The notes: a model not told the origin generated them from the letters alone. A DNA stretch of 64,000 nucleotides from Patescibacteria group bacterium (GCA_036278915.1 DASUKB010000001.1:173186-237185); one strand, 5' to 3'. Shown: positions 1,511-60,907, counted from the stretch's first letter. Numbers and translations are program-made.

Positions 1511-1678
1511 ATGACTAAAGCAAAAATTACAAAAATCGGCGGTCATTCCAGTTCAATTGTTATTCCTGTCCGGATTATGAAAGACTTACACTGGAAAACA
1601 AAACAGAAAGTAGATGTTAAACGAGTCGCGCGCGGCGTGAAGATCACGGATGCAAGGAGTAAAAAACGCCGGCAATAA
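1511..1678 (+). CDS. unannotated 55-aa SpoVT/AbrB-MazE-like (swapped-hairpin) DNA-binding protein
   Basis: Below the 60-aa cutoff of the ORF track. MTKAKITKIGGHSSSIVIPVRIMKDLHWKTKQKVDVKRVARGVKITDARSKKRRQ. Pattern G-x-S-x-x-V-x-IP-x-x-[IL]...V-x-V matches MazE/AbrB N-domain. Clear paralog at 38736-38915 (-). Confidence 0.5.
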   Translation: MTKAKITKIGGHSSSIVIPVRIMKDLHWKTKQKVDVKRVARGVKITDARSKKRRQ

Positions 1679-1688
1679 CTAATGACGT

Positions 1689-1814
1689 AACCCCTCCCAA
1701 CCTCCCCTTATCTAGGGGGAGGAGTAAACCGAACCAGGCTGCAGCTTGGTTTACCCCCTCTTAGAATAAGAGGGGGTGCATAGCACGAGGGTTAACGGGG
1801 GAGTTAGAAACAAA
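1689..1814 (+). repeat. ~125-nt structured intergenic/leader element, copy 1 (three hairpins then GGGGGAGTTAGAAACAAA before ATG)
   Basis: About 90% identical to 3616-3750. Hairpins CCTCCCC/GGGGAGG, AACCAGGCTG/CAGCTTGGTT, ACCCCCTCTTA/TAAGAGGGGGT. Confidence 0.6.
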
Positions 1815-1816
1815 GC

Positions 1817-2251
1817 ATGAGCAAGTACAAAGTTCCATTCTATATATTGTTGGCGCTAGTTATTATTGCAATCGGATTGCTAGTCTACTACAAAGAAGTC
1901 AAAGCGCCGACTACGCAGCCCGCAACACAGAATAATTTGTCTACACCTCCTGTAACCGAAACTTCCCCTCCGGACAACACGCAACCCGAAACGACTCCTA
2001 CCACTGGCACGCTTGCCGGAACAGCAGATACCACAACCCTGCACATCAATAAAATTATTGTTTACAACTCTACTGGCAAAGTTGAAGTTTCTAGCACAAA
2101 TCTAAACGGCGATGGAAGCTTCAGCCTCACTCTTGCGCCAGGGGATTACATGATAGACTATGCGGCCAGCCCCGACCTGTACCCGCACTCACCGGAAAAA
2201 TTTTCCATAGTGGCCGGCCAGACGCACGAAGTGGACTATAGCGTGGAATAA
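1817..2251 (+). CDS. membrane-anchored hypothetical protein (N-terminal TM, Thr/Pro-rich linker, small beta-rich domain)
   Basis: 144-aa ORF immediately after leader element. Hydrophobic N-terminus FYILLALVIIAIGLLVYY. Confidence 0.6.
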   Translation: MSKYKVPFYILLALVIIAIGLLVYYKEVKAPTTQPATQNNLSTPPVTETSPPDNTQPETTPTTGTLAGTADTTTLHINKIIVYNSTGKVEVSSTNLNGDGSFSLTLAPGDYMIDYAASPDLYPHSPEKFSIVAGQTHEVDYSVE

Positions 2252-2255
2252 ATAT

Positions 2256-2450
2256 ATGAAGACAATTATTTTAATTTTAATTATCGGGTTTGCCGTTATT
2301 TACTGGCGAGGCACAAAAGCAATCTTCACCCAAGCGGGTATGGACTGCGACTGGCATGCGGTGTACGCCATTTGCAAAGAGCCAAGCAACAATCCTCAAA
2401 TGCCAAACATAATGGAAATTCTTAAGGCAGGAGCAAAACTGAAGAATTGA
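2256..2450 (+). CDS. small membrane protein, hypothetical
   Basis: 64-aa ORF with N-terminal TM helix, 4 nt after previous stop. Confidence 0.35.
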   Translation: MKTIILILIIGFAVIYWRGTKAIFTQAGMDCDWHAVYAICKEPSNNPQMPNIMEILKAGAKLKN

Positions 2451-2518
2451 CCTAATTACTAATTGATCTAATGTCTAAATTTTAGGTCAATTAGAAATTA
2501 ATAATTAGAAATTTTAAA
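2451..2518 (+). promoter_or_regulatory. conserved AT-rich upstream module copy 1 (palindrome CTAAATTTTAG + TCAATTAGAAATTAATAATTAGAAATTTT)
   Basis: Shared with 14730-14784 and 58966-59014, each directly upstream of an ATG. Confidence 0.45.
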
Positions 2519-3400
2519 ATGCTTGTACACATCGGCAAAATTATTCACAAAAAAATGCTCGGGCACTATGCGGTGCCGGCCTTCAATACGTCCAATTTGG
2601 AACTCACCCAGGGCATAATCCGCGCGGCCGAAGCGCAGAAGGCGCCTATAATTTTGCAAACGTCCGTGGGCGCGCTGGAGTACGCCGGCTTGGAAGAACT
2701 CATAGCCATAAACAAAGCCGCGGCCAGAGAAGCTTCCGTGCCTATCGCGCTGCACCAGGACCATTGCAAGGATTTTGAACTTATCAAAAAACTTATTGCG
2801 CACGGCTACTCGTCGGTCATGATCGATCTTTCCGCGTTGCCGTACGAAGACAACGTCAAACAGACGCGCGAGGTCGTAAAGTACGCGCACAATGCCGGTG
2901 TCTGGGTCCAGGCCGAAATCGGCAGATTGCTTGGCAACGAAGATTGGCAAAACGTCAAAAGCGGCGAGGATTTGGAAACCGATCCTGACGAGGCAGCCAA
3001 GTTTGTGGCATCCACAGGCGTAGACACGCTCGCCGTGGCGGTGGGCACCATGCACGGGATACCCGTGAATCCGGCCACGAAAAAAATTCTGCATACGCTC
3101 AAAGAGCATGTGGATTTGCCCAGGCTTCGGGCCATAGCTGCTAAAGTCAAAATTCCTCTGGTGCTCCATGGCGCTTCCGGCGTGCCGGATGTGCAGCTTA
3201 AAGAGGCGGTGAAAGAAAACGTGGCTATTTTCAATATCGACACGGATTTGCGCGTGGCGTTCAACGAAGCACTGCGGCAAAATATCAAAAAGAACCCACA
3301 GATTTATGATCCGAGGAAATTGTTGGCTCCGGCAACGGATGCTCTGCAAAAAGAAGCCGAGAAAAAGTTGCAAATTTTAGGAGCTTCAGGGAAAGCATAA
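2519..3400 (+). CDS. fba: class II fructose-1,6-bisphosphate aldolase
   Basis: 293 aa. Motifs HQDH (HLDH-like metal site) and LVLHGASG typical of class II FBA/tagatose-bisphosphate aldolase family. Confidence 0.9.
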   Translation: MLVHIGKIIHKKMLGHYAVPAFNTSNLELTQGIIRAAEAQKAPIILQTSVGALEYAGLEELIAINKAAAREASVPIALHQDHCKDFELIKKLIAHGYSSVMIDLSALPYEDNVKQTREVVKYAHNAGVWVQAEIGRLLGNEDWQNVKSGEDLETDPDEAAKFVASTGVDTLAVAVGTMHGIPVNPATKKILHTLKEHVDLPRLRAIAAKVKIPLVLHGASGVPDVQLKEAVKENVAIFNIDTDLRVAFNEALRQNIKKNPQIYDPRKLLAPATDALQKEAEKKLQILGASGKA

Positions 3401-3405
3401 ACATT

Positions 3406-3461
3406 GTCATTCTGAGCGAAGCGAAGAATCTTATAAGATCCTTCACTGCGTTCAGGATGAC
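3406..3461 (+). terminator. long imperfect hairpin in fba 3' region (plus-strand specific, contains G.U wobbles)
   Basis: GTCATTCTGAGCGAAGCGAAGAATC...TCACTGCGTTCAGGATGAC. Mismatches are T-G/G-T only on the plus-strand RNA. No T-tract. Confidence 0.35.
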
Positions 3462-3483
3462 AGGTAAAAATTAATTAAATTTT

Positions 3484-3606
3484 ATGGGTTTTGAAAAATG
3501 GCTGCACACAAAACTTGCGCCGTTTATACAAAATGAGGAAGAGTATCTGCTGATGATCGTGGGGCTGGCGGCAGTGGCTTTGTTTTTGTACGCAGTAATT
3601 AGTTGA
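3484..3606 (+). CDS. possible 40-aa membrane micro-protein
   Basis: ATG ORF MGFEKWLHTKLAPFIQNEEEYLLMIVGLAAVALFLYAVIS. Not in ORF track (<60 aa). No strong RBS. Confidence 0.2.
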   Translation: MGFEKWLHTKLAPFIQNEEEYLLMIVGLAAVALFLYAVIS

Positions 3607-3615
3607 ATAATTAAT

Positions 3616-3750
3616 AACCCCTTCCAACCTCCCCTTATGTTAAGAGGAGGAGTAGACTAAGACCAGGCTGCAGCTTGGTTTGGGTTTACCCCCTCTTAGA
3701 ATAAGAGGGGGTACGTAACACGAGGATTATCGGGGGAGTTAGAAACAAAT
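3616..3750 (+). repeat. structured intergenic/leader element, copy 2
   Basis: Near-identical to 1689-1814. Ends GGGGGAGTTAGAAACAAA, 5 nt before the gap ATG. Confidence 0.6.
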
Positions 3751-3755
3751 AATAT

Positions 3756-4814
3756 ATGAGCAAAATACGAGTTGCTATAAATGGTTTTGGTAGAATTGGC
3801 CGGCAAGCTTTTAAAATCGCCCTCACCAAACCAGAACTTGAAGTGGTGGCCATAAACGACCTCACCGAACCTGCCATACTGGCCCAGCTTTTGCGCTACG
3901 ACACCAACTACGGCCCATACGACAAAAAAGTGAGCAGCGACGAGGTGAAAGGAAAAGCCAACCCGACCACTTATTCCGTAGGAAATATTATTGTGGATGG
4001 GCAGAAAGTTCCGATATTCGCCGAGAAAGATCCAAGCGCTTTGCCCTGGAAAGATTTGGATGTGGATGTGGTACTTGAATCCACAGGAAGATTTATAACC
4101 ACAGAGGCGTCAAGTGCGCATCTTAAGGCCGGAGCCAAAAAAGTTATAATCTCCGCACCTGCCAAAGACGAAGGTATAACCCCGACATTTATAATCGGCG
4201 TCAACCACGACAAATATGCAGACCAGCAGATAATTTCCAACGCCTCCTGCACCACCAACTGCATCACTCCGGTAATTGCCGTGCTGCAGAGCAAATTCGG
4301 CATCAAGAAACTGATGATGTCCACGATTCATTCATACACCGCGGAGCAGAATTTGGTGGATGGCCCGCCGCCGGGCGGAAAGTCGCACGACATGCGCCGG
4401 GCTCGCGCCGCAGCCGTGAACATTATACCCACCTCCACGGGCGCCACTATCGCCACCACCGAAGCCATACCGGAATTGAAAGGCGCGCTGGCCGGCATGG
4501 CGTTCCGCGTGCCCACGCCAGTAGGGTCGCTCTCGGATTTCACGGTCATCCTCAACAAAAAAGTTACGGTGGAGGAAGTCAACCGCGCGTTTACCGAAAT
4601 GGCCAAACACCCGATGTGGGAAAACGTGCTTGAAGTGACCACCGAGCCTATCGTCTCAAGCGATATCATAGGCAACCCGCACTCGGCTATAGTGGATTTG
4701 TCGCTAACGCAGGTCGTGGACGGGGATATGGTGAAAGTAATCGCCTGGTACGACAACGAGTTCGGATATTCAAATAGATTCGTGGAGCAGGCAATATTGA
4801 TAGGAAAAAATTAA
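3756..4814 (+). CDS. gap: glyceraldehyde-3-phosphate dehydrogenase, type I
   Basis: 352 aa. NGFGRIGR Rossmann motif and catalytic SCTTNC. Confidence 0.95.
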   Translation: MSKIRVAINGFGRIGRQAFKIALTKPELEVVAINDLTEPAILAQLLRYDTNYGPYDKKVSSDEVKGKANPTTYSVGNIIVDGQKVPIFAEKDPSALPWKDLDVDVVLESTGRFITTEASSAHLKAGAKKVIISAPAKDEGITPTFIIGVNHDKYADQQIISNASCTTNCITPVIAVLQSKFGIKKLMMSTIHSYTAEQNLVDGPPPGGKSHDMRRARAAAVNIIPTSTGATIATTEAIPELKGALAGMAFRVPTPVGSLSDFTVILNKKVTVEEVNRAFTEMAKHPMWENVLEVTTEPIVSSDIIGNPHSAIVDLSLTQVVDGDMVKVIAWYDNEFGYSNRFVEQAILIGKN

Positions 4815-4818
4815 ACAA

Positions 4819-4899
4819 CACCCCCCGGCCTTCGGCCACACCCTCTTTAGTAAAGAGGGGGTGCGTACGCCAAGGGTTCGCGGGGGGAGTTCTAAAAAA
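4819..4899 (+). promoter_or_regulatory. leader element copy 3 (GGCC-TTC-GGCC hairpin, CCCTCTTTAG/TAAAGAGGGGG hairpin, GGGGGGAGTTCTAAAAAAATG)
   Basis: Shares hairpin + GGGGAGTTCTAAA architecture with five other sites. Confidence 0.5.
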
Positions 4900-6033
4900 A
4901 TGCCAGAGCAAAACCCACAATCAAATATTCCACCCGAAGAGCAATTTCGGCAGCCTGGTGCATTTGAGCATCATAAGCCGCATCGGTTTACCATAAACCA
5001 CATCGTGGCGTATGTGGCTTTGGGTATGCTCGGCCTGGCTATCGTGGCTGTGTCGTATTATTATCAGGTTTCAAATTATTTACCAGAACAACTGCAAAAC
5101 GTGATACATCATCCCAAGTCAACGGCCAGCTGTAACAGTACGGATATGGATCAGCTGCCAGTGTCTTGTGATGGACAAACCTCCCAAACCGACCCAACAG
5201 CCAACTGGAAAACTTATACGAACACTGATTTTGGATACGAGTTTAAGTATCCGAATAATTTAAATATTCAAAATGATGGTGGGGGAGCTATTTTTACGGA
5301 CGGCGCAGATTTTGGATCATCAGGTTACGATATATATGTGAGTCCTGACCAGGTAGGGGATGTAAATCTCACAAGCCGCGATGGTTATAAGGTTGAAAAG
5401 ATTGCCATTCCGACAATAACCGCATATGAAATCACGAAAGCTGGTTATGATCCGGAATTTTATATTGAGAACCAAAACGATCCAGGCAATTATATAAAGA
5501 TGGGCATTCAACAATATTGTGATTCGGGATCTGATTGTAAGTCTGGGGATGCTGGGAACTTATTGAATCAAATTTTATCTACTATCAAATTCCAGAATGA
5601 GTCAGCAGCACTATCAAATTTTACCTGGAAGACTTATGCGGACGATTCGGTTACTTTTGAATATCCAAGTGACTATACAATTAGTAGCCAGAAATCTGGA
5701 GTTGAAGAAGGCATTGATTTATCTGCGAATGGTATAAGCACTATAGGTATAACGAAGACTGTTACAGATGAATCAGCGGATGAAATTTTTAAAGATGCAG
5801 AGTATAATTTCAGCGTTAACAAACAAAATCCCGAAGATCAGCTAAATTACTTGACCATAGACGGATATAAGGCTATTAAATTGTATTATAGCGACTGGGA
5901 TATCGAAGATCACCTTTATAATTCAGAAATCACGATCCCGATGGGCGATACTGAATACAACTTGGTTTTTTCGGGAGCCCAAAACCAATTAACAAAATTT
6001 GACCAATTGGTTAATTCAATTAAATTTAAGTAA
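4900..6033 (+). CDS. secreted/membrane-anchored protein with two tandem WKxY...STFKF domains (paralog A)
   Basis: ORF track gives GTG 4861. ATG at 4900 follows the leader motif. TM anchor IVAYVALGMLGLAIVAV. Repeats WKTYTNTDFGYEFKYP and WKTYADDSVTFEYP. Domain ends STIKF and NSIKFK. Confidence 0.6.
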   Translation: MPEQNPQSNIPPEEQFRQPGAFEHHKPHRFTINHIVAYVALGMLGLAIVAVSYYYQVSNYLPEQLQNVIHHPKSTASCNSTDMDQLPVSCDGQTSQTDPTANWKTYTNTDFGYEFKYPNNLNIQNDGGGAIFTDGADFGSSGYDIYVSPDQVGDVNLTSRDGYKVEKIAIPTITAYEITKAGYDPEFYIENQNDPGNYIKMGIQQYCDSGSDCKSGDAGNLLNQILSTIKFQNESAALSNFTWKTYADDSVTFEYPSDYTISSQKSGVEEGIDLSANGISTIGITKTVTDESADEIFKDAEYNFSVNKQNPEDQLNYLTIDGYKAIKLYYSDWDIEDHLYNSEITIPMGDTEYNLVFSGAQNQLTKFDQLVNSIKFK

Positions 6034-7087: not shown

Positions 7088-8306
7088 ATCAATTACATCC
7101 GTAAAAGTTACTGGCAAGCGCGTGGTTGTACGCGCGGGTTTTGATGTCCAATTGGAAAAGAAATCACACCATACCGAATTTACAGTTGTAGACGATACGC
7201 GGGTTCGCGATATTTTGCCTACGCTCAAATACCTTATCAAGCAGAAAGCGCGGATCGTGATAGTGTCGCACCTGGGCCGGCCGGAAGGATATGATGAGTC
7301 CAAATCTATGTGGCCAGTGGCTGAGGATTTGGCCCGGATTTTAAACTACAAACCCGTCAAAGTTACGGACCGCCTGCCTGAATACGCTGTGCCGCACGTG
7401 TATTTTTTGGCAAGTGACATCACCAAAAAAGATTACTCATCGATGAGTGAGAAAATTAGCCCCGGCGATATTTTGTTTTTGGAAAATGCAAGGTTTTATA
7501 AAGGGGAGCAGGAGAATGATCCTAAGTTTGTAAAAACCCTAGCTTCGTTTGGCGATATATATGTAGAGGATGCATTTTCCGTGGTCCACCGCAAAGAAGC
7601 TTCAACTTACGGTTTGGCCGAAAAATTACCGCATTATGCTGGCGTGTCTTTGCTCGGCGAAATAAAGTCTCTCAACCGCCTTACGCAAAACCCGGCGCAC
7701 CCGATGGTGCTTATAATGGGCGGAGCCAAAGTCGCGGATAAAGCCGGGACGATAAAAAATTTGGCCAAGCACGCGGACTTTATATTGGTCGGCGGCGCTT
7801 TGGGCAATTCGTTCCTCAAGGCCGCAGGCTACGAAACCGGCAAATCCAAAGTTGCAGATGTGGCCTTGGCCAAAGAGCTCCTGCGCAATTTTAAATCCAA
7901 AATTATCTTGCCCGCAGATATAATCGTGGCCAAATCCGAAGAGGGCGAAGCCCGTGCCTGCAGCGTGGCTGGCGTGCGGCCGAATGAAAATTTATATGAT
8001 ATCGGTCCGCAGACCGTGCTCAAGTTTTCATCTTACATCAAAAAAGCCAAGACCTTGGTTTGGAACGGCCCAATGGGTATAATAGAGATGAAGAAGTTTT
8101 CATTCGGATCCGCAGGTGTCGCCACTGCGTTTGCCGCCAGATCCCGCGGACCGGCATTTGGGGTCGTGGGCGGCGGGGAAACCATACAAGTTATAAATCG
8201 CGAGAAAGTTGCGGAATTTATAGACCATGTCTCCACAGGTGGGGGTGCGATGCTTGAATATTTAGCCGGCAAAAAATTGCCGGGAATAGAAATTTTGGAA
8301 AAATAA
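7080..8306 (+). CDS. pgk: phosphoglycerate kinase
   Basis: 408 aa. N-terminal KRVVVRAGFDV substrate-binding motif and overall PGK architecture. GTG start overlapping previous stop. Confidence 0.95.
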   Translation: MIKSITSVKVTGKRVVVRAGFDVQLEKKSHHTEFTVVDDTRVRDILPTLKYLIKQKARIVIVSHLGRPEGYDESKSMWPVAEDLARILNYKPVKVTDRLPEYAVPHVYFLASDITKKDYSSMSEKISPGDILFLENARFYKGEQENDPKFVKTLASFGDIYVEDAFSVVHRKEASTYGLAEKLPHYAGVSLLGEIKSLNRLTQNPAHPMVLIMGGAKVADKAGTIKNLAKHADFILVGGALGNSFLKAAGYETGKSKVADVALAKELLRNFKSKIILPADIIVAKSEEGEARACSVAGVRPNENLYDIGPQTVLKFSSYIKKAKTLVWNGPMGIIEMKKFSFGSAGVATAFAARSRGPAFGVVGGGETIQVINREKVAEFIDHVSTGGGAMLEYLAGKKLPGIEILEK

Positions 8307-12116: not shown

Positions 12117-13391
12117 TTACCGAATTTTATAACTTGCCAAATGCATGTCGTCAAACACCGTCAGAACCGACCCATTGCTGTTGAGCGTAAATTGGGAGTT
12201 GGGTCCGACATTGGTCAGGATGGTGTAGATATTGCGATGATCACGGCCATCCAGCTCCACTGCTTTGATGGCATTTTCATTTTCGAAAAATACATAGCCG
12301 TCGTAAGAATTGATAACGGGATGATTTAGAGTGCTAATGGAGCGCAAGATCAGTTCCGTTTTTTTCTGCTGCGGATCATATAGGAGAATGTCGTTGGCGT
12401 CGGCAAACAACAGTTCATGGCTTGCTGTATCATAGCTTGCAGCCGTGGCGCCGTCGTAGATTTTTTCTAAACTGTCATTAAGTTTATAAAGCGATTTGTC
12501 TAAAAGCAGAAAAGTATTCCCTTCGCCGCGGATGATTTGCGCGTTTTGAGAAGTGGGCAGATTTGTGTAAATTGTAGTCGTAACTTTGGTGCGCAAATTA
12601 TATTCTTTCAGCAATTGGCCCTGCACGTACCAGAGGTTTTCACCATCCATGCTAAAACCCGAAACATTGGTATCCACGGTCTGCGGGTCATTAGCAGACA
12701 GAACCTGCAGCTGTCGTGCAGCCAGAATGGCGAAATTGTCGCCGTCGGTTTGCACCTGACTAATGCTTGAGATATCTGGCACCGAAAACGAATGGCTTTG
12801 GAAATAGCTTAGAACTTTAGCCGCATTGCTCCAGCGCAAATTTTCCGTAAATGTGAGGGGCACATAAAAATTTCCTATATTGCCCAGCTGCTGTGTGCTC
12901 TGGCTGCCAACGTCATAAATATGCAAATTATTATTTTGGATGTAAGCAATTTCGGTGCCATTATCCGATAAGCTGGAGAAATTATCGGACATTTCGATTT
13001 GTTGTTGCGGTTCGGCAAGAAACAGCGTGATAAAATCTCGGTCAAAGTTAACCCAGGTCGCAAGCTGCGGGTCTACGCTCAGCCGCTTAGTCCAGGACTG
13101 GTAGCCGGTTTTTTCTATCCGGACATTGTAATCGCCAGGCAGCACGAAACGCACAGTCTCAGGCGTTAATCCTTGAGCCTTTTGATTATTAAGATAAATA
13201 TCTGCTTTGTCGGGCATGGTTTGGACTATGAGTACCCCGGTTTTCACGATCTTGTGGTGCGTCCAGTCTATCTCATAGCCGATTGTAAACAAAACCAGGA
13301 GAGGGACAATTACCACAAATATGAGGATTCCAAACCCGACTAGTAGAAATCGATTGCGTAAAGTCATATAATACCTACTAATTTTACGCAA
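12117..13391 (-). CDS. membrane-anchored PEGA-domain protein with beta-propeller-like C-terminal region
   Basis: 424 aa. N-terminal TM. PEGA-like LPGDYNVRIEKTGYQSW. Convergent with rnhA (7-nt gap). Confidence 0.7.
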   Translation of the reverse strand: MRKISRYYMTLRNRFLLVGFGILIFVVIVPLLVLFTIGYEIDWTHHKIVKTGVLIVQTMPDKADIYLNNQKAQGLTPETVRFVLPGDYNVRIEKTGYQSWTKRLSVDPQLATWVNFDRDFITLFLAEPQQQIEMSDNFSSLSDNGTEIAYIQNNNLHIYDVGSQSTQQLGNIGNFYVPLTFTENLRWSNAAKVLSYFQSHSFSVPDISSISQVQTDGDNFAILAARQLQVLSANDPQTVDTNVSGFSMDGENLWYVQGQLLKEYNLRTKVTTTIYTNLPTSQNAQIIRGEGNTFLLLDKSLYKLNDSLEKIYDGATAASYDTASHELLFADANDILLYDPQQKKTELILRSISTLNHPVINSYDGYVFFENENAIKAVELDGRDHRNIYTILTNVGPNSQFTLNSNGSVLTVFDDMHLASYKIR

Positions 13392-13472: not shown

Positions 13473-14729
13473 ATGTCCAAATTTATAATTACAGGCGGGA
13501 AACCGCTTGCAGGTGAAATCAAAGTTTCGGGATCAAAAAACGCAATCGTGGCGCTGATGGCCGCGTCGCTTTTGACTCAAGATGAATGTGTCATCACCAA
13601 TGTTCCAGAAATTTCCGACGTCCAAAGTTTAATTGAAATATTAAAAGAATTAGGCGTACAGGTTGAATACGGCAAACATAAACTGGTCATCAGAGCAGAG
13701 AATATCGCAAAGGTGAATCCGAGTGCCGAACTGGTTGGCAAACTTCGCGGTTCGATTTTGCTTTTAGGTCCAATCCTTGCTCGCAAACATGAGGTGGATT
13801 TCCCTTTTCCGGGAGGGGATCTTATCGGCAAGCGACCTATCAATGCTCACACCGATGCATTCAAAAATTTGGGAGCCTTAGTGGATACTTCAAACGGCAC
13901 TCTTAAAATTACGGCTGATAATTTGAAGGGCAGCAAAGTCGTCCTAACCGAAACATCTGTTACCGCCACCGAAAATATCATGCTGGCCGCGGCTCTGGCA
14001 GAAGGACCTACCACAATCAAACTGGCGGCAATGGAACCGCATGTGCAGCAACTTGGGTTGTTCCTCAAAAAAATGGGAGCAAAGATTAAAGGCGTGGGCA
14101 CTCCAACTATTACAATTGAGGGCGTTGATAAATTACACGGGGCCAAAATCAAAGTTATTCCGGACGACAACGAGGCTTCGAGTTTGATTACAATGGCAGC
14201 CGTATGCGGTATGGACGTGAAGGTATCCAAACTTGAACCCGAGCATTTGGAAGACTATCTTTTGAAATTAAAAACGATGGGAGTGAATTTTGAAGTCGGG
14301 GAAGATTATGTCCGCGTGAAAAAATCTGATACGCTCATGGGAATTGCCAAACTGCAATGCGGATTTTATCCGAAATTAAATTCCGACTATATACCGCCGA
14401 TGTCTGTCTTGGCCACACAGGCTACTGGCGAAACCGTGATATATGACTGGATGTATGAAAATCGCACAGGTTACGCAACGGAATTAAACAAAATGGGCGC
14501 GCAAATTGAAGTTTTGGATCCGCACCGAGTAAAAATTGCAGGCCCGACTAAATTGCATGAGGCATCACTAAGCGCAGGAGATTTGCGCATGGGCATGACT
14601 TTGGTAATTGCCGCTTTGATAGCCGAAGGTAAATCTGAAATCAATGACGTGCATCACATCGACCGCGGGTATGAAAATTTAGAAAAAAGATTGCGAATGC
14701 TAGGCGCAGATATTAAGAGGGCGAATTAA
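13473..14729 (+). CDS. murA: UDP-N-acetylglucosamine 1-carboxyvinyltransferase
   Basis: FIITGGKPLAGEIKVSGSKNA N-terminal signature of MurA/EPSP-synthase fold. About 418 aa from ATG 13473. Confidence 0.9.
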   Translation: MSKFIITGGKPLAGEIKVSGSKNAIVALMAASLLTQDECVITNVPEISDVQSLIEILKELGVQVEYGKHKLVIRAENIAKVNPSAELVGKLRGSILLLGPILARKHEVDFPFPGGDLIGKRPINAHTDAFKNLGALVDTSNGTLKITADNLKGSKVVLTETSVTATENIMLAAALAEGPTTIKLAAMEPHVQQLGLFLKKMGAKIKGVGTPTITIEGVDKLHGAKIKVIPDDNEASSLITMAAVCGMDVKVSKLEPEHLEDYLLKLKTMGVNFEVGEDYVRVKKSDTLMGIAKLQCGFYPKLNSDYIPPMSVLATQATGETVIYDWMYENRTGYATELNKMGAQIEVLDPHRVKIAGPTKLHEASLSAGDLRMGMTLVIAALIAEGKSEINDVHHIDRGYENLEKRLRMLGADIKRAN

Positions 14730-14784
14730 CCTAATTCTAAACTGTTTAGATCAATTAGAAATTAAAAATTAGAAATTTTGATAT
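14730..14784 (+). promoter_or_regulatory. conserved AT-rich upstream module copy 2 (palindrome CTAAAC-T-GTTTAG + TCAATTAGAAATTAAAAATTAGAAATTTT)
   Basis: Aligned by eye to 2451-2518 and 58966-59014. Confidence 0.45.
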
Positions 14785-15851: not shown

Positions 15852-15879
15852 AGGAAAGTGGCTTCCTGAAAATTTTTTT
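15852..15879 (+). terminator. terminator-like hairpin + T-tract after mreB paralog 1
   Basis: AGGAAAG-TGG-CTTCCT followed by GAAAATTTTTTT. Confidence 0.4.
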
Positions 15880-16107
15880 GACGCAAAATTTCATGCGTGC
15901 CAGAATATTTGAGGTTAAGCCTACTAAACGTTTAGAAATAGAGAATAAAAAATCGGTAAGTCGTAATTGAAACTTCGCCTCTTTAGAGAGCAGGATCAAT
16001 TCAAAAAAGACCTACTGATTTTTTGTTGGAAAAAAAGAAACCCGACAACACACGATGTGTCGTCGGGTAAGTAGGCCTGGATTATTTTTTCAAAACAGGT
16101 TCCAGCA

Positions 16108-16247
16108 CCGAACAACCGCTCGGCCAGCCGCAATGCTGGGATCGTCAAAATCCGCTATTTATATGTATATAGAAGTGGATGTTGACTCACGCAAAATTTT
16201 CTGATGAAAATTTTGAGTGTCCGCATTGCGGCTGGCCTCGCTAATAA
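16108..16247. repeat. 140-bp repeat R1 copy 1 with 15-bp terminal inverted repeats (GGCCAGCCGCAATGC ... GCATTGCGGCTGGCC); MITE-like or structured ncRNA
   Basis: 137/140 identical to 25813-25952. Internal hairpin CAAAATTTTC-TGATG-GAAAATTTTG. Confidence 0.7.
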
Positions 16248-16262
16248 GTTATCCTGGAGGTT

Positions 16263-16291
16263 TTGTCAACGCTTGTGGCAAATGGTATAAT
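16263..16291 (+). promoter_or_regulatory. strong sigma70-like promoter (TTGTCA-17-TGgTATAAT) driving leaderless holB
   Basis: -10 ends 7 nt before ATG 16298, so the predicted TSS is at or near the A of ATG. Confidence 0.55.
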
Positions 16292-16297
16292 TTGTAT

Positions 16298-17158
16298 ATG
16301 TTTGAAACAATTGCGGGCCATGCGAAACAGAAACAATTACTAACCAAATCCATAGAATCTGGCAAAATTGCGCATGCATATGTTTTTGCCGGCCCAGGTT
16401 CGGTGGGCAAAAGATTAATCGCGAAAGGCTTTGCGAACGCTTTGTTAGGGATGAGCGATGAGGGGAGAGGGATGAGTTTCCACCCGGATCTTTTAGAAAT
16501 TGCAGGGGATGAACCCGTCAAAATTGAGCAGATTCGCGAATTGATTTATAAACTTTCGTTGCAGCCTTACCAAGCCAAATACAAAATCGCGCTCATTGAT
16601 AATGCTGAAAATATGACAACTGAAGCGCAGAACGCGCTCCTTAAGGCTTTGGAAGAACCCAAAAGCTACACGGTCATGATTTTAGTCACGGAAGCTTTTG
16701 GAAAACTTTTGGGTACGATTACTTCTCGGGCGCAGAAATTAAATTTCGGTCTTGTCCGTCCTGCAGACTTCCAAGCTTTGCTTCCGGCAAATTTACCTGA
16801 ATGCGATGTAAAACAAATCGCCGAGTTTGCTGCTGGTCGCCCCGGACTGGCAGTGCGGATTGCCAACGATTCGGATTTGCGCGAAACACTTTCGGAAATA
16901 AATAATAATTTGGAAATAATCAAATCACAAGATTTACCGGCCAAACTCAAACTGGCATATGATCTGGCAGAGCTCGAAACAGTAGAGCTGCGACAACAAT
17001 TTGATTTTTGGCTTGCCAGACTTGAACAGGATCTGCTGACAGAACCAGGCAAGCTCCCGGCTCGATATATTTCCGCGGTGGCGCGATCGCGAAAGCATCT
17101 GGATCAAAACGCCAACAGCAAACTGCTTTTGACCAATTTGATGCTCCAACTCAACTGA
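16298..17158 (+). CDS. holB: DNA polymerase III delta' subunit
   Basis: ORF track begins at 16217 (inside R1 repeat). ATG 16298 gives MFETIAGHAKQK...AHAYVFAGPGSVGKR Walker-A-like clamp-loader motif. Confidence 0.85.
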   Translation: MFETIAGHAKQKQLLTKSIESGKIAHAYVFAGPGSVGKRLIAKGFANALLGMSDEGRGMSFHPDLLEIAGDEPVKIEQIRELIYKLSLQPYQAKYKIALIDNAENMTTEAQNALLKALEEPKSYTVMILVTEAFGKLLGTITSRAQKLNFGLVRPADFQALLPANLPECDVKQIAEFAAGRPGLAVRIANDSDLRETLSEINNNLEIIKSQDLPAKLKLAYDLAELETVELRQQFDFWLARLEQDLLTEPGKLPARYISAVARSRKHLDQNANSKLLLTNLMLQLN

Positions 17159-19971: not shown

Positions 19972-19999
19972 CAGCTCGAAAGACTGGTGGAGAGCCTGT

Positions 20000-20007
20000 G
20001 GTATAAT
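20000..20007 (+). promoter_or_regulatory. extended -10 TGgTATAAT upstream of proS leader
   Basis: ctgTGGTATAATtgagg. The leader element lies between this and ATG 20084. Confidence 0.4.
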
Positions 20008-20016
20008 TGAGGCAAT

Positions 20017-20064
20017 GCCCTCACCCCCGGCCCCTCTCCCGGATCGGGAGAGGGGAGTTCTAAA
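20017..20064 (+). promoter_or_regulatory. leader element copy 4 (GCCCTCACCCC box + CCCCTCTCCC/GGGAGAGGGG hairpin + AGTTCTAAA)
   Basis: Lies between predicted -10 and proS ATG, hence transcribed 5' UTR. Confidence 0.5.
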
Positions 20065-20083: not shown

Positions 20084-21319
20084 ATGAAGCAATCAGAATT
20101 ATTTGTAAAAACCTTAAGGAACGCACCCAAAGATGAAGAGACTATAAACGCTCAACTTTTGGTGCGCGCAGGTTTTGTAAACAAACTCATGGCTGGCGTA
20201 TATTCATACCTGCCGCTTGGGCTTTTGACGTTGCGAAAAATTAGCGAACTCGTGCGTTGCGAGATGGATTCAATTGGCGGCCAGGAAATCCTTATGCCAG
20301 GATTGCATCCGGCCGAGAACTGGAAGACAACCGGCGGCTGGGACAAAGTAGATGTTTTGTTCAAGATTAAATCCCGCACCGAAAAAGACTATGCACTCGG
20401 GCAAAGCGAAGAAGAGGTCGTGACGCCGCTTGTAATGGGCTATATTGAGACCTACAAGGATCTGCCGCAGGCTGTGTATCAAATTGGCTGGAAGTTCCGC
20501 GATGAACTGCGATCCAAGTCCGGGCTTTTGCGCGGCAGGGAGTTTTTGATGAAAGATATGTACAGCTTCCATGAGAGCCAGGCGGACTTCGATAGGTTTT
20601 ATGAGATTGTCAAAAAGGCGTATCTTCGGATATTTGAAAAGATTGGGCTTGTGGCCAAGGTTACGGAAGCCTCGGGAGGCGCGTTTTCGGAAAAAATTTC
20701 CTATGAATTTATGGTACTCACTGATGCGGGGGAAGATGACATTTTGTATTGCGATGCTTGCGAGTTCTGCGTAAATACCGAAATTGCCAAAGTCGTGGCT
20801 GGCGATGCTTGCCCCAAATGCGGAAAAGGAAAATTATCGCAAGCCAAAGCTTCCGAAGTAGGAAATGTCTTTGATCTCGGCCAAAAATATGGCAAGGATT
20901 TTGACTTGGGTTTCCGGGACCAGGAAAACCAGGTTAAATATCCGATTATGGGATGTTATGGCTTGGGAATTTCAAGGCTTATGGGCGTAATTGTGGAAAA
21001 ATTCCATGACGACCGGGGAATTATCTGGCCTCAAGCAGTGTCGCCTTTTGACTTACACCTTTTAAACATTGCCCAAGATGAAAAAGTTACGGAAAAATTA
21101 TACCAAACTTTACAGTCCGCGGGGTTTTCGGTACTATTAGATCAAAGAGACGTGCGTCCCGGCGAAAAATTTGCCGACAGCGATCTTATAGGCATTCCAT
21201 GGCGGATTTTGGTGTCCGACAAAACGCTTGAAACCGATTCCGTGGAAATCAAACCCAGAAACAGCGATCAAACTTCAATTGTTAAGATAAAGGATCTGCC
21301 CGAGAGCCTAAAAAACTAA
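20084..21319 (+). CDS. proS: prolyl-tRNA synthetase, short form lacking INS editing domain (Cys4 zinc-ribbon insert instead)
   Basis: N-terminus resembles bacterial ProRS (LLVRAGFVNKL..YSYLPLG). Motif 2 FRDE...REFLMKDMYSF. CDACEFC...CPKCGKGK where E. coli carries the INS domain. Confidence 0.85.
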   Translation: MKQSELFVKTLRNAPKDEETINAQLLVRAGFVNKLMAGVYSYLPLGLLTLRKISELVRCEMDSIGGQEILMPGLHPAENWKTTGGWDKVDVLFKIKSRTEKDYALGQSEEEVVTPLVMGYIETYKDLPQAVYQIGWKFRDELRSKSGLLRGREFLMKDMYSFHESQADFDRFYEIVKKAYLRIFEKIGLVAKVTEASGGAFSEKISYEFMVLTDAGEDDILYCDACEFCVNTEIAKVVAGDACPKCGKGKLSQAKASEVGNVFDLGQKYGKDFDLGFRDQENQVKYPIMGCYGLGISRLMGVIVEKFHDDRGIIWPQAVSPFDLHLLNIAQDEKVTEKLYQTLQSAGFSVLLDQRDVRPGEKFADSDLIGIPWRILVSDKTLETDSVEIKPRNSDQTSIVKIKDLPESLKN

Positions 21320-25812: not shown

Positions 25813-25952
25813 CCGAACAACCGCTCGGCCAGCCGCAATGCTGGGAGCGTCAAAATTCGCTATTTATATGTATATAGAAGTGGATGTTGACTCACGCAAA
25901 ATTTTCTGATGAAAATTTTGTGTGTCCGCATTGCGGCTGGCCTCGCTAATAA
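25813..25952. repeat. 140-bp repeat R1 copy 2
   Basis: 137/140 identical to 16108-16247. Same terminal inverted repeats. Confidence 0.7.
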
Positions 25953-33085: not shown

Positions 33086-33166
33086 TCCCTCACCCCAGAC
33101 AGATTTCGGCAGCAAATGAGGGAGTGAATCTCTCTCCCCCAGATGGGAGAGGGGGAGTTCTAAAAG
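33086..33166 (+). promoter_or_regulatory. leader element copy 5 (TCCCTCACCCC box, CTCTCCCCC/GGGAGAGGGGG hairpin, AGTTCTAAAAG)
   Basis: Same architecture as copies 4 and 6. 13 nt before ATG 33179. Confidence 0.5.
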
Positions 33167-33178
33167 TAGATAAACCTA

Positions 33179-34180
33179 ATGAAAATTTTCTCAAAGCATC
33201 GCAAAAAATTAGAGCCACATCGGCGGTTTGGCAGTCGTGAATTCCAGTCCAAACTCACGAGTGCCAAGAACTATAAGCGAAACTTGGGCCTCAAATCTCG
33301 TGGTTCAGCCCTGGCCGATATTTTTTCCAAAACCGGCTTGTCCAAAGCCGGCACGTTTGCGGCTTTGCTGGTTTTGGCCGGGATTATTTATTTTGCGGCC
33401 TTTTCTCCTTATTTTTTGGTTAAAGACATAAATGTTTCCGGCAACTCGCGGATACCGAGCCAAACAATTGTCTCAGAAATTGACTCACTGTCGCAGAAAA
33501 GATTTTTTTTGGTACCGGAAAATAGCCTGCTTTTTCTAAGCCAAGGTCGGCTGAGTGGAATTTTTAAGAAAAATCTGCCGGATATTTCGGAAGTTATATT
33601 ATCGCGCCACTGGCCGGATAAAATCAGCCTGCAGGTGACAGAGCGCAATCCAAGTTTCGTACTTTCGGCAACCGGAGAAAATTTTTTGGTGGACGACCAG
33701 GGATTCGTCATTCGCCAAGTAGTCCAAAATCCCAACTTGCTTCAAGTCGCCGATCAGGTGAGTGAGGATGTATCCCCGGGTTCAACCATAGGCGGCAAAA
33801 TTGTGCCATTTATAGTTTCCATGCAAAAACAATGGCCTGGCAAAATAACCATCCCCATCGCTTCCGCCAAAATTCCCGGGAAAGCGGCTTCCGAGGTGGA
33901 GTTTGTGTCCACGGAGGGGTGGTCAGTCCTGTTTTCCACGGACTTGCCTGTGGCAACCCAGCTGGATAGCCTTCAGCTGCTTTTAAGCCGACAGATAACG
34001 CCAGCAAATCGGGCGAAGCTTTCGTACATAGACTTGCGGCTGGCTAAGTGGGCTTACTATTGTTACAAAGACACTCCTTGCCAGCAAACATCCGAGCAAT
34101 CACAGGCGGCAATTGGTCCGCAGGCTCCCGTGACCGGATCAAGCACCCGGCAGACGCAAAATTCCGATACATCCGAATAG
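33179..34180 (+). CDS. ftsQ: FtsQ/DivIB-like cell-division protein (POTRA domain)
   Basis: Basic N-terminus, single TM (FAALLVLAGIIYFAAF), POTRA-like region VKDINVSGNSRIPSQTIV. Confidence 0.6.
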   Translation: MKIFSKHRKKLEPHRRFGSREFQSKLTSAKNYKRNLGLKSRGSALADIFSKTGLSKAGTFAALLVLAGIIYFAAFSPYFLVKDINVSGNSRIPSQTIVSEIDSLSQKRFFLVPENSLLFLSQGRLSGIFKKNLPDISEVILSRHWPDKISLQVTERNPSFVLSATGENFLVDDQGFVIRQVVQNPNLLQVADQVSEDVSPGSTIGGKIVPFIVSMQKQWPGKITIPIASAKIPGKAASEVEFVSTEGWSVLFSTDLPVATQLDSLQLLLSRQITPANRAKLSYIDLRLAKWAYYCYKDTPCQQTSEQSQAAIGPQAPVTGSSTRQTQNSDTSE

Positions 34181-40627: not shown

Positions 40628-40696
40628 TTAAGTTTTAGATTTTAGTTTCATAAATCCGATTGAATTTTTGCACCCGATATTGTATAATTTAGCCAC

Positions 40697-44286: not shown

Positions 44287-44315
44287 TTGACCGGGTTCCA
44301 AATTTTTGCTAAAAT
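44287..44315 (+). promoter_or_regulatory. sigma70-like promoter TTGACC-17-TAAAAT for rplU
   Basis: Read directly. Leader element copy 6 lies between it and the ATG. Confidence 0.45.
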
Positions 44316-44331
44316 ATTTGGGCAATAATTA

Positions 44332-44378
44332 TCCCTCACCCTCTTACCCCTCTCCCGAGAGGGATAGGGGAGTTCTAA
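44332..44378 (+). promoter_or_regulatory. leader element copy 6 (TCCCTCACCC box, CCCCTCTCCC/GGGATAGGGG hairpin, AGTTCTAAG)
   Basis: Same architecture as copies 4 and 5. Confidence 0.5.
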
Positions 44379-44392
44379 GAAGAAGAATCAAG

Positions 44393-44692
44393 ATGCAGGC
44401 AGTTATAGAAACAGGCGGAAAGCAGTATCTGGTTTCCCCCAAAGAGAAATTGGCAATCGAAAAAATCGCAGGCGCCGCCGGCGACACTGTGGCTTTTGAC
44501 AAAGTCCTGCTCACCATCGACGGCGACAAAGTCAGCCTGGGCAAACCATATCTGGCTAATCAGAAAGTTTCGGCCAAAATCGTAGAGCAGTCACGAGCCG
44601 AGAAATTGACTGTATTTAAATACCGCGCCAAGTCGCGCTACCGACGCAAAACTGGACATCGCCAGAGCCAGACTATAGTTGAAATTCAATAA
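44393..44692 (+). CDS. rplU: 50S ribosomal protein L21
   Basis: ORF track begins 44306. ATG 44393 gives MQAVIETGGKQYLVSPKEKL..., canonical bL21 N-terminus, 99 aa. Confidence 0.9.
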   Translation: MQAVIETGGKQYLVSPKEKLAIEKIAGAAGDTVAFDKVLLTIDGDKVSLGKPYLANQKVSAKIVEQSRAEKLTVFKYRAKSRYRRKTGHRQSQTIVEIQ

Positions 44693-58965: not shown

Positions 58966-59014
58966 AAAAATTGATCTAATTTCTAAAATTTAGGTCAATT
59001 AAAAATTATAAATT
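58966..59014 (+). promoter_or_regulatory. conserved AT-rich upstream module copy 3 (palindrome CTAAA-A-TTTAG + TCAATTAAAAATTATAAATT)
   Basis: Aligned to 2451-2518 and 14730-14784. Confidence 0.45.
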
Positions 59015-59425
59015 ATGAAGAAGCTTAATCCTAAAGATAACGCCGCTCATCTGTTTTGCCTGTTTCTGGCAGAGGAAATGCGAAAACGCACGATTTCGCT
59101 TGGTCAGGCCAAGGAAATGGCGCGCGCCGTAGTGGCTCACAAAAATCTTGTCGATAACGAAGAGCATATGTTGCGGCTGGTTATCGAACTTTCCAAAGAT
59201 TTCCCGCAACTCAAGAATTTTGAAAAAAAACTTGCGGAATATATTGAGAAGACAACACGCTCCAAACAAGAACTTTTGATTACAGAGTTTGTCTCGCAAA
59301 TTATGGATTCCGACCCAAACCAGGCCATGAGAATTCTGGATGACGCTATAGAGTCGTCTTACAATTTGGACGCTCTCAAAGCTAAGTATCCAGAACTTGG
59401 ACAATTTTTAAACCAAAACCAATGA
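59015..59425 (+). CDS. hypothetical helical 136-aa protein
   Basis: ORF directly after module copy 3. No family recognised. Confidence 0.5.
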   Translation: MKKLNPKDNAAHLFCLFLAEEMRKRTISLGQAKEMARAVVAHKNLVDNEEHMLRLVIELSKDFPQLKNFEKKLAEYIEKTTRSKQELLITEFVSQIMDSDPNQAMRILDDAIESSYNLDALKAKYPELGQFLNQNQ

Positions 59426-60837: not shown

Positions 60838-60907
60838 GGTAGACAATCACAAAAGCGGCTATGAGCCGTTTTTTATTTTGTCCGAAATTGTGGTAAAATA
60901 AAGCGCT

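Follow-up and report, generated by a model that had tools for sequence, protein, structure and literature searches.

The window, that is, the whole stretch of 64,000 nucleotides analysed here (GCA_036278915.1 DASUKB010000001.1:173186-237185), stems from a Patescibacteria group bacterium whose nearest named relatives are Candidatus Doudnabacteria, with Gap proteins that are 80-87% identical. About 50 of its 63 putative genes lie on the + strand, and most genes are preceded by an AT-rich region without a Shine-Dalgarno sequence. Just 5' of six of them, namely gap, proS, an ftsQ-like gene, rplU and two genes for hypothetical proteins, and all on one strand, lie the copies of the repeat considered here (c1 to c6), a C-tract/G-tract hairpin followed by GGGGAGTT(AG/CT)AA. 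A preliminary description of this DNA had taken them either for cis-acting RNA leaders or for an element of the repetitive extragenic palindromic (REP) kind co-opted at promoters, and had left them unnamed.

The recurrence itself is real. With one mismatch allowed, GGGGAGTTNNAAA is found seven times in the window against 1.7 expected, a number reached by none of 100 shuffles, and six of the seven matches coincide with the named sites, without exception on the + strand (1798, 3733, 4884, 20052, 33152, 44367). The two long copies are indeed near-identical, 114 of 126 aligned bases being alike (90.5%; 84% counting nine gap columns) between c1 (1689-1814) and c2 (3616-3750), and the box reported to be common to copies 4-6, the 9-mer CCCTCACCC, occurs exactly three times in the window, confined to these copies. 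A covariance model of the short type, run over the 64 kb with filters off, recovered c4, c5 and c6 with E 4e-16 to 7e-12, and c3 with E 0.002, with no further match in the window. None of the six copies lies within a gene, each insertion site has + strand genes on both sides, and c1, c2, c3 and c5 start 0-10 nt from the upstream stop codon. The distance of 5-25 nt to the ATG given earlier needs correction: it amounts to 10-26 nt when measured from GGAG and to 3-19 nt from the end of the motif. The copies and their parts are as follows.

1687..1814, + strand: c1, long copy, inverted doublet; ATG of a 144-aa gene at 1817
1687-1698: c1, left C-box/terminal repeat GTAACCCCTCCC
1701-1722: c1, hairpin H1
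1732-1751: c1, central palindrome AACCAGGCTGCAGCTTGGTT
1754-1776: c1, hairpin H3
1796-1806: c1, right G-box/terminal repeat CGGGGGAGTTA
1807-1814: c1, tail GAAACAAA
3614..3749, + strand: c2, long copy; gap ATG at 3756
3614-3625: c2, left terminal repeat ATAACCCCTTCC
3628-3650: c2, imperfect hairpin H1
3662-3679: c2, central palindrome
3689-3711: c2, hairpin H3
3731-3741: c2, CGGGGGAGTTA
3742-3749: c2, tail
4812..4899, + strand: c3, between long and short types, a shorter relative of c1 and c2; begins at the gap stop codon
4827-4837: c3, GC hairpin
about 4839-4862: c3, hairpin H3
4880-4891: c3, GCGGGGGGAGTT, followed by the tail to 4899
20016..20064, + strand: c4, short copy, BoxC/PIT/TM unit; between an extended -10 (19997-20007) and the proS ATG at 20084
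20018-20026: c4, box CCCTCACCC
20031-20055: c4, hairpin
20056-20064: c4, tail AGTTCTAAA
33085..33164, + strand: c5, short copy; between the SerRS gene and the ftsQ-like gene (ATG at 33179)
33087-33095: c5, box, which pairs with TGAGGG to form an extra hairpin
33132-33151: c5, main hairpin
33152-33164: c5, GGGGAGTTCTAAA
44331..44379, + strand: c6, short copy; 3' of a promoter (44287-44315) and 5' of the rplU ATG at 44393
44333-44341: c6, box
44347-44370: c6, hairpin with one mismatch
44371-44379: c6, tail AGTTCTAAG

A location between promoter and start codon, as had been proposed for two copies, holds for rplU, where TTGACC-17-TAAAAT precedes c6, and in part for proS, where an extended -10 (TGTGGTATAAT) is present and a promoter scan of the window finds no -35. 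This -10 aligns with that of relatives, three of which (L179-L181) have a full TTGTCA -35 upstream. The window copies are almost certainly co-transcribed with their neighbours, as is seen from the position for rplU and from the conserved promoter for proS; effects on host gene expression would be by-products of secondary importance. The GGGGAG, once regarded as a Shine-Dalgarno sequence, is not a dedicated one, because its spacing of 10-26 nt is too long and too variable and because it ends the right-hand block of the repeat. A TTG-initiated upstream open reading frame (ORF) after c4 was discarded, because it runs in a different frame from proS and lacks an equivalent in c5 and c6.

Syntenic loci were fetched from relatives and identical intergenic sites were compared with the window. 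Among the matches listed by gap-based scans of genomes and metagenomes, the close relatives were L002 and L095-L097, the rest being mostly from distant phyla. The spacer between the small ORF and gap, 148 nt in the window with c2, is only 0-14 nt long in L002, L091, L092, L093/L094 and L096, and in L095, L097 and L185 it holds an unrelated inverted-repeat family. The site after gap, occupied by c3 in the window, is empty in L092, L093, L096, L097 and L185; it contains a different palindrome in L002, an element of like design and different sequence in L091, and a clearly homologous, fuller element in L095 (1404-1552), to which c3 is orthologous. At proS, about 75 nt including c4 are inserted past the -10, whereas in L179, L180, L181 and L184 TATAAT lies 7-9 nt from the ATG (L179 1000-1046; L180 and L181 9960-10003; L184 9960-10003), and the SerRS-ftsQ spacer measures 99 nt in the window with c5 as against 13 nt in L179. 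The sole comparable spacer for c1, in front of the orthologue of the 144-aa gene in L093, is a structured sequence of 73 nt whose ends (TAACC...GGTTA) are similar; it may be a relative of c1 in degenerate form. At five of the six sites, at least one close relative is devoid of a repeat of this family, the rplU site lying outside the comparison; at four of them (c2, c3, c4 and c5), a short empty spacer is found in at least one close relative, and none of the six window insertions is present in the syntenic 42 kb (L184 and L185) of the species RIFCSPLOWO2 Doudnabacteria. The layout of proS in the four relatives looks to be of the leaderless type, and insertion of c4 appears to have turned a leaderless proS mRNA into one with a structured leader of about 75 nt. 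TATAAT or TAAAAT at 7-9 nt from the ATG is also seen for at least two window genes (40670-40696, 60885-60907), which suggests that leaderless mRNAs are frequent in this lineage. Within the window, an ATG 8 nt past the proS -10 would open a 17-codon ORF through c4 (20007-20064; MPSPPAPLPDRERGVLN up to the stop), which may, speculatively, be a remnant of an ancestral leaderless proS start.

Profiles built from the window copies were used to scan other loci, and family members were found at non-orthologous sites of other Doudnabacteria. L177, another locus of the RIFCSPLOWO2 species, holds four full gene-less long copies, two short copies and one gene-bearing long copy within 20 kb. One of these (15857-15907) is almost identical to c4 across the unit of about 50 nt, yet lies 5' of a TPR gene. 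Two long copies of L177 abut start codons in sense orientation (ArgRS, IleRS), another is antisense between two + strand genes (12361-12488) and a further one lies between convergent genes (13198-13310); a half-element is also found between convergent genes in L184 (8961-9031), beside a normal terminator. Copies within one locus share a strand, namely 6/6 in the window and 7/7 in L177 whatever the direction of the genes, which hints at strand-biased insertion rather than at selection by the genes. A replication-strand cause of the uniform orientation was considered as well, the GC skew being positive throughout the window and flat in L177. An exact search of viral contigs with GGGGGAGTTMKAAAMAAA gave nine matches, all of them chance occurrences within unrelated sequence.

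As judged from its sequence, the long form is best described as an inverted doublet of short-type units, consisting of C-box and hairpin, a variable centre, and hairpin and G-box. The consensus reads, on the left, (A)TAACCCCTCC, an optional GC hairpin and CCTCCCC..GGGGAGG, followed by a variable centre often with CTGCAG and, on the right, by CCCCCTCTTA..TAAGAGGGGG, about 20 nt and GCGGGGGAGTTATA. The elements are 112-149 bp long and end in imperfect terminal inverted repeats ATAACCCCTCC...GGGGGAGTTAT, the terminal helix of which pairs in 93% of the aligned cells, with a bulge and a G-U pair needed; in either half, the box mirrors the adjacent hairpin arm (CCCCTCC and CCTCCCC; GAGGGGG and GGGGGAG). 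With a length below about 300 bp, multiple non-coding copies and terminal inverted repeats, the long type has the make-up of a miniature inverted-repeat transposable element (MITE). All full long copies have TA before ACCCC and after GGGAGT, which could be a target duplication; no closely matched pair of filled and empty sites is in the sample.

When the ORF is taken out, the flanks of DUF559 gene #2 of L177 (16052-16411, minus strand) match c1 and c2 from one end to the other, and this homology covers both terminal repeats, both hairpins and the GAGGGTTAGCGGGGGAGTTA segment. The element at 15977-16470 has, accordingly, the ends and the interior of the long type plus a DUF559 ORF; DUF559 is no known transposase. 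DUF559 gene #1 of the same locus is central in another subfamily, a gene-less copy of which lies about 700 bp off. The cassette measures about 0.5 kb and codes for a product of about 115-120 aa. Since a relative possesses the same element with a central DUF559 gene, the long copies of the window are regarded as gene-less, MITE-like versions of it.

The DUF559 family is predicted to be a Vsr-like PD-(D/E)XK nuclease; its sequence matches PDB 3HRL (E 5e-21), its E. coli member YcjD was so classed in 2005, and the Vsr/DUF559 clade includes one proven homing endonuclease, I-Bth0305I (EDxHD/Vsr-like; PMC3239194). Its association with such repeats extends far beyond Doudnabacteria. The loci L005 and L098 had been obtained by way of Gap, and each has a DUF559 gene (Pfam PF04480, E 1e-34 and 2e-26) enclosed by two complete elements. 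A total of 63 strict C-tract hairpins was counted over 2.03 Mb of assorted loci (0.031 per kb), while in L175, L176 and L098 the sole two within 12-20 kb directly flank the DUF559 gene, as do all three in L005; a G-tract lies 4-9 nt before the DUF559 ATG in L175, L005 and L098. All eight DUF559 genes taken from a plasmid collection (Azospirillum, Deinococcus, Picosynechococcus, Synechocystis, Neisseria, Photobacterium, Sphingomonas, Sinorhizobium) have repeats resembling the short type at one or both ends, and in the Deinococcus and Azospirillum loci these are the only strict hairpins in 10 kb. For 15 DUF559 genes pooled, a repeat is within 200 bp in 13-14 cases and on both sides in 7-8, and 26 of 59 hairpins fall into 4.4% of the sequence (binomial p about 5e-20). 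The association spans Patescibacteria, Alpha-, Beta- and Gammaproteobacteria, Cyanobacteria and Deinococcus. On two cyanobacterial plasmids, the DUF559 cassette lies beside or inside DUF1156-family genes (L189 4334-5453, Synechocystis; L188, Picosynechococcus pAQ6); the annotated DUF1156 gene of L189 is a fragment directly upstream of the cassette, which suggests insertion into the gene.

In E. coli K-12, the DUF559 gene ycjD has, by visual inspection, a BoxC-like hairpin in its 3' end and a known repeat, TM#9, 168 nt downstream; part of the ycjD 3' end is duplicated between the gene and TM#9 (L182, E. coli K-12 1349500-1352500; L183). The gene is present in 3378 of 5426 genomes, and those without it carry the efflux-pump operon eefRABCD at the same fabI-sapF locus (PMC12817139). 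As the operon replaces ycjD instead of leaving a simple empty site, no clean element boundary can be drawn there. The literature searched contained no paper that links DUF559 or ycjD with BoxC/PIT or with any palindromic repeat.

The short copies (proS, ftsQ, rplU) have a name: they correspond in sequence to units of the repeat called BoxC, PIT (potential intrastrand triplex) or "triplex motif" (TM), and the long copies, likewise left unnamed before, would be the gene-less derivatives of the DUF559 cassette described above. The short form comprises a pyrimidine box, the hairpin arms CCCCTCTCCC and GGGAGAGGGG, and a tail of a few nucleotides. In reverse complement, c4 reads CCCCTCTCCC-GATC-CGGGAGAGGGG-CCGG-GGGTGAGGGC, and type B of the E. 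coli motif (TMECO) reads CCCTCTCCC-TGTG-GGAGAGGG-CCGG-GGTGAGGGC (PMC4666352). A TM repeat is recognised by three consecutive G/C-rich blocks of at least 8 nt, namely a pyrimidine arm, a complementary purine arm across a loop of 3-5 nt, and a third block 2-4 nt away that equals the purine arm with an A-to-T change (GGGTGAGGG). On comparison with Table 1 of PMC4666352, all three are found in c4 and c6, with the box CCCTCACCC, a spacer of 4-5 nt and the hairpin CCCCTCTCCC/GGGAGAGGGG; in c5 the box is 36 nt from the hairpin, and comparable blocks occur in c1 and c2, spaced by 2 and about 20 nt. The box pointed out in the preliminary description is the third block of this motif, and it changes together with the arms between subfamilies, arm CCCTCTCCC occurring with box CCCTCACCC and arm CCCCTCCCC with box CCCCACCCC. 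Intergenic siting and variable presence, as known of TM repeats, are also seen here, all six copies being intergenic and the proS and ftsQ sites being empty in relatives. Similar TM units are found in the unrelated high-GC loci L113 and L167. TM repeats have 23 copies in E. coli K-12, occur in more than 260 genomes and are always intergenic (Holder et al. 2015, PMC4666352); their loci are hypervariable among E. coli strains (PMC4666352).

Taken together, the six copies probably constitute one family of non-coding palindromic C-tract/G-tract DNA repeats, the long form of which is the gene-less version of a DUF559 cassette. Such repeats would spread within and between Patescibacteria genomes and settle where the spacers between genes are short and AT-rich. 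Nicks or cuts made in the repeats by a DUF559 nuclease in trans might drive their copying, in one of two ways: the DUF559 gene would home into copies that lack it, or the repeat would be copied to new sites by a break-induced or a single-strand, hairpin-directed process. That DUF559 endonucleases are the dedicated partner of BoxC/PIT/TM repeats throughout bacteria, including YcjD and the 23 BoxC copies, is put forward more tentatively, at somewhat less than an even chance; the nuclease could then be a maintainer and copier like the transposases of REP sequences or a homing invader, and nuclease and palindrome would form an unrecognised class of mobile elements of about 0.5 kb, of which the window repeats are gene-less derivatives.

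Several points weigh against this interpretation. The TA at either end, instead of being a target-site duplication, may just belong to the terminal repeat. Searches for DUF559 itself supplied most of the DUF559 loci, L005 and L098 alone having turned up by chance. Placement of the gene varies, being central in the L177 doublet and between two complete elements in L005, L098, L175 and L176, and the 64-kb window itself contains no DUF559 gene. Holder et al. found the E. coli motif unassociated with transposons, phages and plasmids (PMC4666352). Finally, the six window copies without exception, and likewise the five short copies from all loci taken together, point to a downstream start codon, which is compatible with some selection for orientation or with a strand bias of insertion.

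This uniform pointing is also an argument for an unlikely alternative, although the likeliest of those considered, namely that the repeats are of mobile origin and were then exapted here, a copy providing a 5' stabilising hairpin and a GGAG ribosome-binding site, with only sense copies surviving upstream of genes. The essential proS must still be translated after its leaderless layout was apparently replaced by the c4 leader, and the GGAG of c4 might help initiation; the G-tract preceding the DUF559 ATG in L175, L005 and L098 could likewise serve as a Shine-Dalgarno sequence of that gene. However, the evidence from orientation is weak because the + strand carries some 50 of the 63 putative genes, among them both neighbours of every insertion site, the seven L177 copies keep to one strand whatever the gene direction, and spacings of 20-26 nt are poor for a Shine-Dalgarno sequence.

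Improbable, too, is a role at the level of DNA structure, by which an intrastrand triplex (H-DNA) would be tolerated or used as a hotspot of recombination or replication pausing, with no dedicated enzyme. The short copies have the three TM blocks, the single strand of which forms a stable triplex in vitro (PMC4666352), and their third block shifts with the arms between subfamilies, as the boxes of the long type mirror their arms; hypervariability of the E. coli loci would fit as well. Holder et al., however, detected no triplex in duplex DNA or by in vivo footprinting (PMC4666352), and a purely structural role leaves the near-identical copies at unrelated sites across species and the tight DUF559 link unexplained.

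The reading as cis-regulatory RNA leaders, in which a folded 5' untranslated region hides the GGGGAG ribosome-binding site and releases it upon a temperature, ligand or protein signal, is considered very unlikely and is largely refuted already. It draws on the position of the elements 3-19 nt before start codons, 3' of a promoter for rplU and probably for proS, and on folding: far more stably than shuffled sequence (z about -4.6), the three long copies adopt a closed multi-hairpin structure in which the 5' C-tract is paired with GGGGGAG. The short copies, in contrast, stay near their shuffled controls (z -0.5 to -1.9), and folding energies of + and - strand are mixed or comparable, the - strand being about equal or better for the short copies. 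The inverted-repeat structure has been preserved across eight long copies, where 96% of cells are paired and the interior separating the hairpins varies freely; 18 of 31 pairs are invariant and only 2 of 31 have a compensatory change. Stems that are conserved in sequence and almost devoid of compensatory changes fit a DNA repeat better than an RNA structure under evolution. Rfam gave no match for the elements, either in a gathering search of the window or in an E-value search of 1600-5000 up to E 10, where only tRNA and chance matches appeared. The genes downstream are unrelated in function, sites are devoid of the element in relatives at 80-87% protein identity, and copies in other genomes are antisense or between convergent genes. 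By the marks of a conserved leader, namely orthologous position, compensatory pairs, strand-specific structure and membership of a curated family, the elements do not qualify. For the long type, neither a bias toward start codons elsewhere nor appreciable covariation is seen, the outcome which the preliminary description had itself taken to imply a selfish repeat only; the few short copies are all sense and 5' of starts. It was the other suggestion of the preliminary description, a REP-like selfish element at promoters, that proved essentially right.

A REP sequence consists of a 20-40 bp imperfect palindrome headed by a conserved GTAG tetranucleotide. It is hardly to be expected that the present repeats are classical REP sequences or inverted pairs of them (REPIN) moved by a REP-associated tyrosine transposase (RAYT; Y1 HUH transposase). 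They do form GC-rich palindromic singlets and inverted doublets in intergenic DNA, and a Y1_Tnp gene exists in a Doudnabacteria relative (L175 19441-19854), but GTAG is found at neither end of any copy, and every C-tract hairpin of L175, L176 and L098 flanks a DUF559 gene. The L175 gene, the sole Y1_Tnp gene seen, was rejected as the partner enzyme, its flanks being unrelated hairpins (GCCGAT...ATCGGC). Together with these, the gene (PF01797, RAYT/IS200-like; L175 19395-19893) represents a separate candidate REP-RAYT pair. Very unlikely, too, are intrinsic terminators or 3' mRNA-stabilising hairpins of the upstream genes: c1, c2, c3 and c5 do begin close to a stop codon and their GC hairpins are stable, but no U-tract follows the hairpins, a scan for terminators has no match at the elements, promoters precede c4 and c6, sites are empty in relatives, and Holder et al., in their account of earlier work, give TM repeats including PIT elements as having neither promoter nor terminator activity (PMC4666352).

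In some relatives, these spacers are taken up by repeats of other families. Palindromes of a second family, GTCATTCTGAGCGAAGCGAAGAATC...GGATGAC, are found behind fba in the window (3405-3463) and in L002 (7055-7140); in L091 (8535-9013) and L180 (about 7600-8040) a GIY-YIG nuclease ORF is exactly central in this family (...CGAAGCAATCT[ORF]AGATTGCTTCG...), which parallels the DUF559 case. Inverted repeats of a third family, AATCCCGTTAGA...TCTAACGGGATT, occur in L095 (about 150-345), L097 and L185 (upstream of gap), L091 (256-365) and L184 (20010-20400). This family occupies the gap spacer of some relatives, brackets a GIY-YIG gene in L184 and has GTTAGAAA in common with the tail of the window long copies. 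An AT-rich inverted-repeat family, TTGATCTAAT..TAGGTCAATTAGAAATTA, is located immediately 5' of three start codons of the window (2461-2507, 14725-14771, 58969-59015). A 140-nt segment is duplicated with 98% identity (16108-16247 and 25813-25952) within two uncommonly long stretches of intergenic DNA (424 and 253 nt); it is without a match in Rfam and may represent either a promoter region that was duplicated or an RNA of no known class. At 1468-1500 of the window, a few GTACGTAC-type repeats (ACGGTACGTACCCGGTACGTACGACGTACGTACG) separate a 62-aa ORF from a small AbrB/MazE-like ORF (1511-1678).

For annotation it follows that such conspicuous G/C hairpins at start codons of the candidate phyla radiation (CPR) should not be catalogued as riboregulators or Shine-Dalgarno sequences; they are repeat insertions that are gained and lost between close relatives and that, as proS seems to illustrate, can remodel the 5' ends of genes in a compact genome. 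In E. coli, BoxC/PIT/TM repeats were recognised as early as the 1990s, with no function, origin or way of spreading known for them. The DUF559 link provides a concrete candidate enzyme (YcjD), suggests a life cycle of the REPIN-RAYT or the homing kind that relies on another nuclease fold and would, if causal, address the old question of how these repeats spread.

Summarizing, the short type is already known, and what is new is the doublet form with its DUF559 cassette, as a variant of the theme of palindromic repeat plus nuclease. With published BoxC/PIT/TM repeats, the window copies share the three blocks, a near-equal sequence, strictly intergenic siting, the occurrence as singlets and inverted pairs, and a presence that differs between close relatives; they differ in the conserved tail AGTT(C/A)TAA, the one shared strand and the CPR host, and the long doublet and the internal DUF559 gene are absent from the published description. 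MITEs such as Correia (CREE/NEMIS) and ERIC likewise are 110-150 bp long and intergenic, with terminal inverted repeats and TA at both ends, are co-transcribed, fold into long hairpins and lie sometimes between promoter and start codon; here, however, no transposase of a known insertion sequence (IS) family shares the ends, and the gene-bearing relative codes only for the nuclease of about 115-120 aa. Homing endonuclease genes (GIY-YIG; I-Bth0305I, PMC3239194) resemble the cassette in that a tiny nuclease ORF sits precisely inside a sequence of which many ORF-less copies exist, whereas the target here would be a multi-copy non-coding palindrome and not a conserved gene, intron or intein, and the DUF559 proteins do not have the extra DNA-binding domains of I-Bth0305I. 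From the REP/REPIN-RAYT system the repeats are set apart by the DUF559 (Vsr-like PD-(D/E)XK) endonuclease in place of the Y1 HUH transposase, by the lack of a GTAG head and by three-block units with a mirror or third-strand block; common to both are short GC-rich palindromes occurring as singlets and inverted doublets, a patchy, lineage-specific distribution, and many gene-less copies beside one or a few that flank a small nuclease-type gene.

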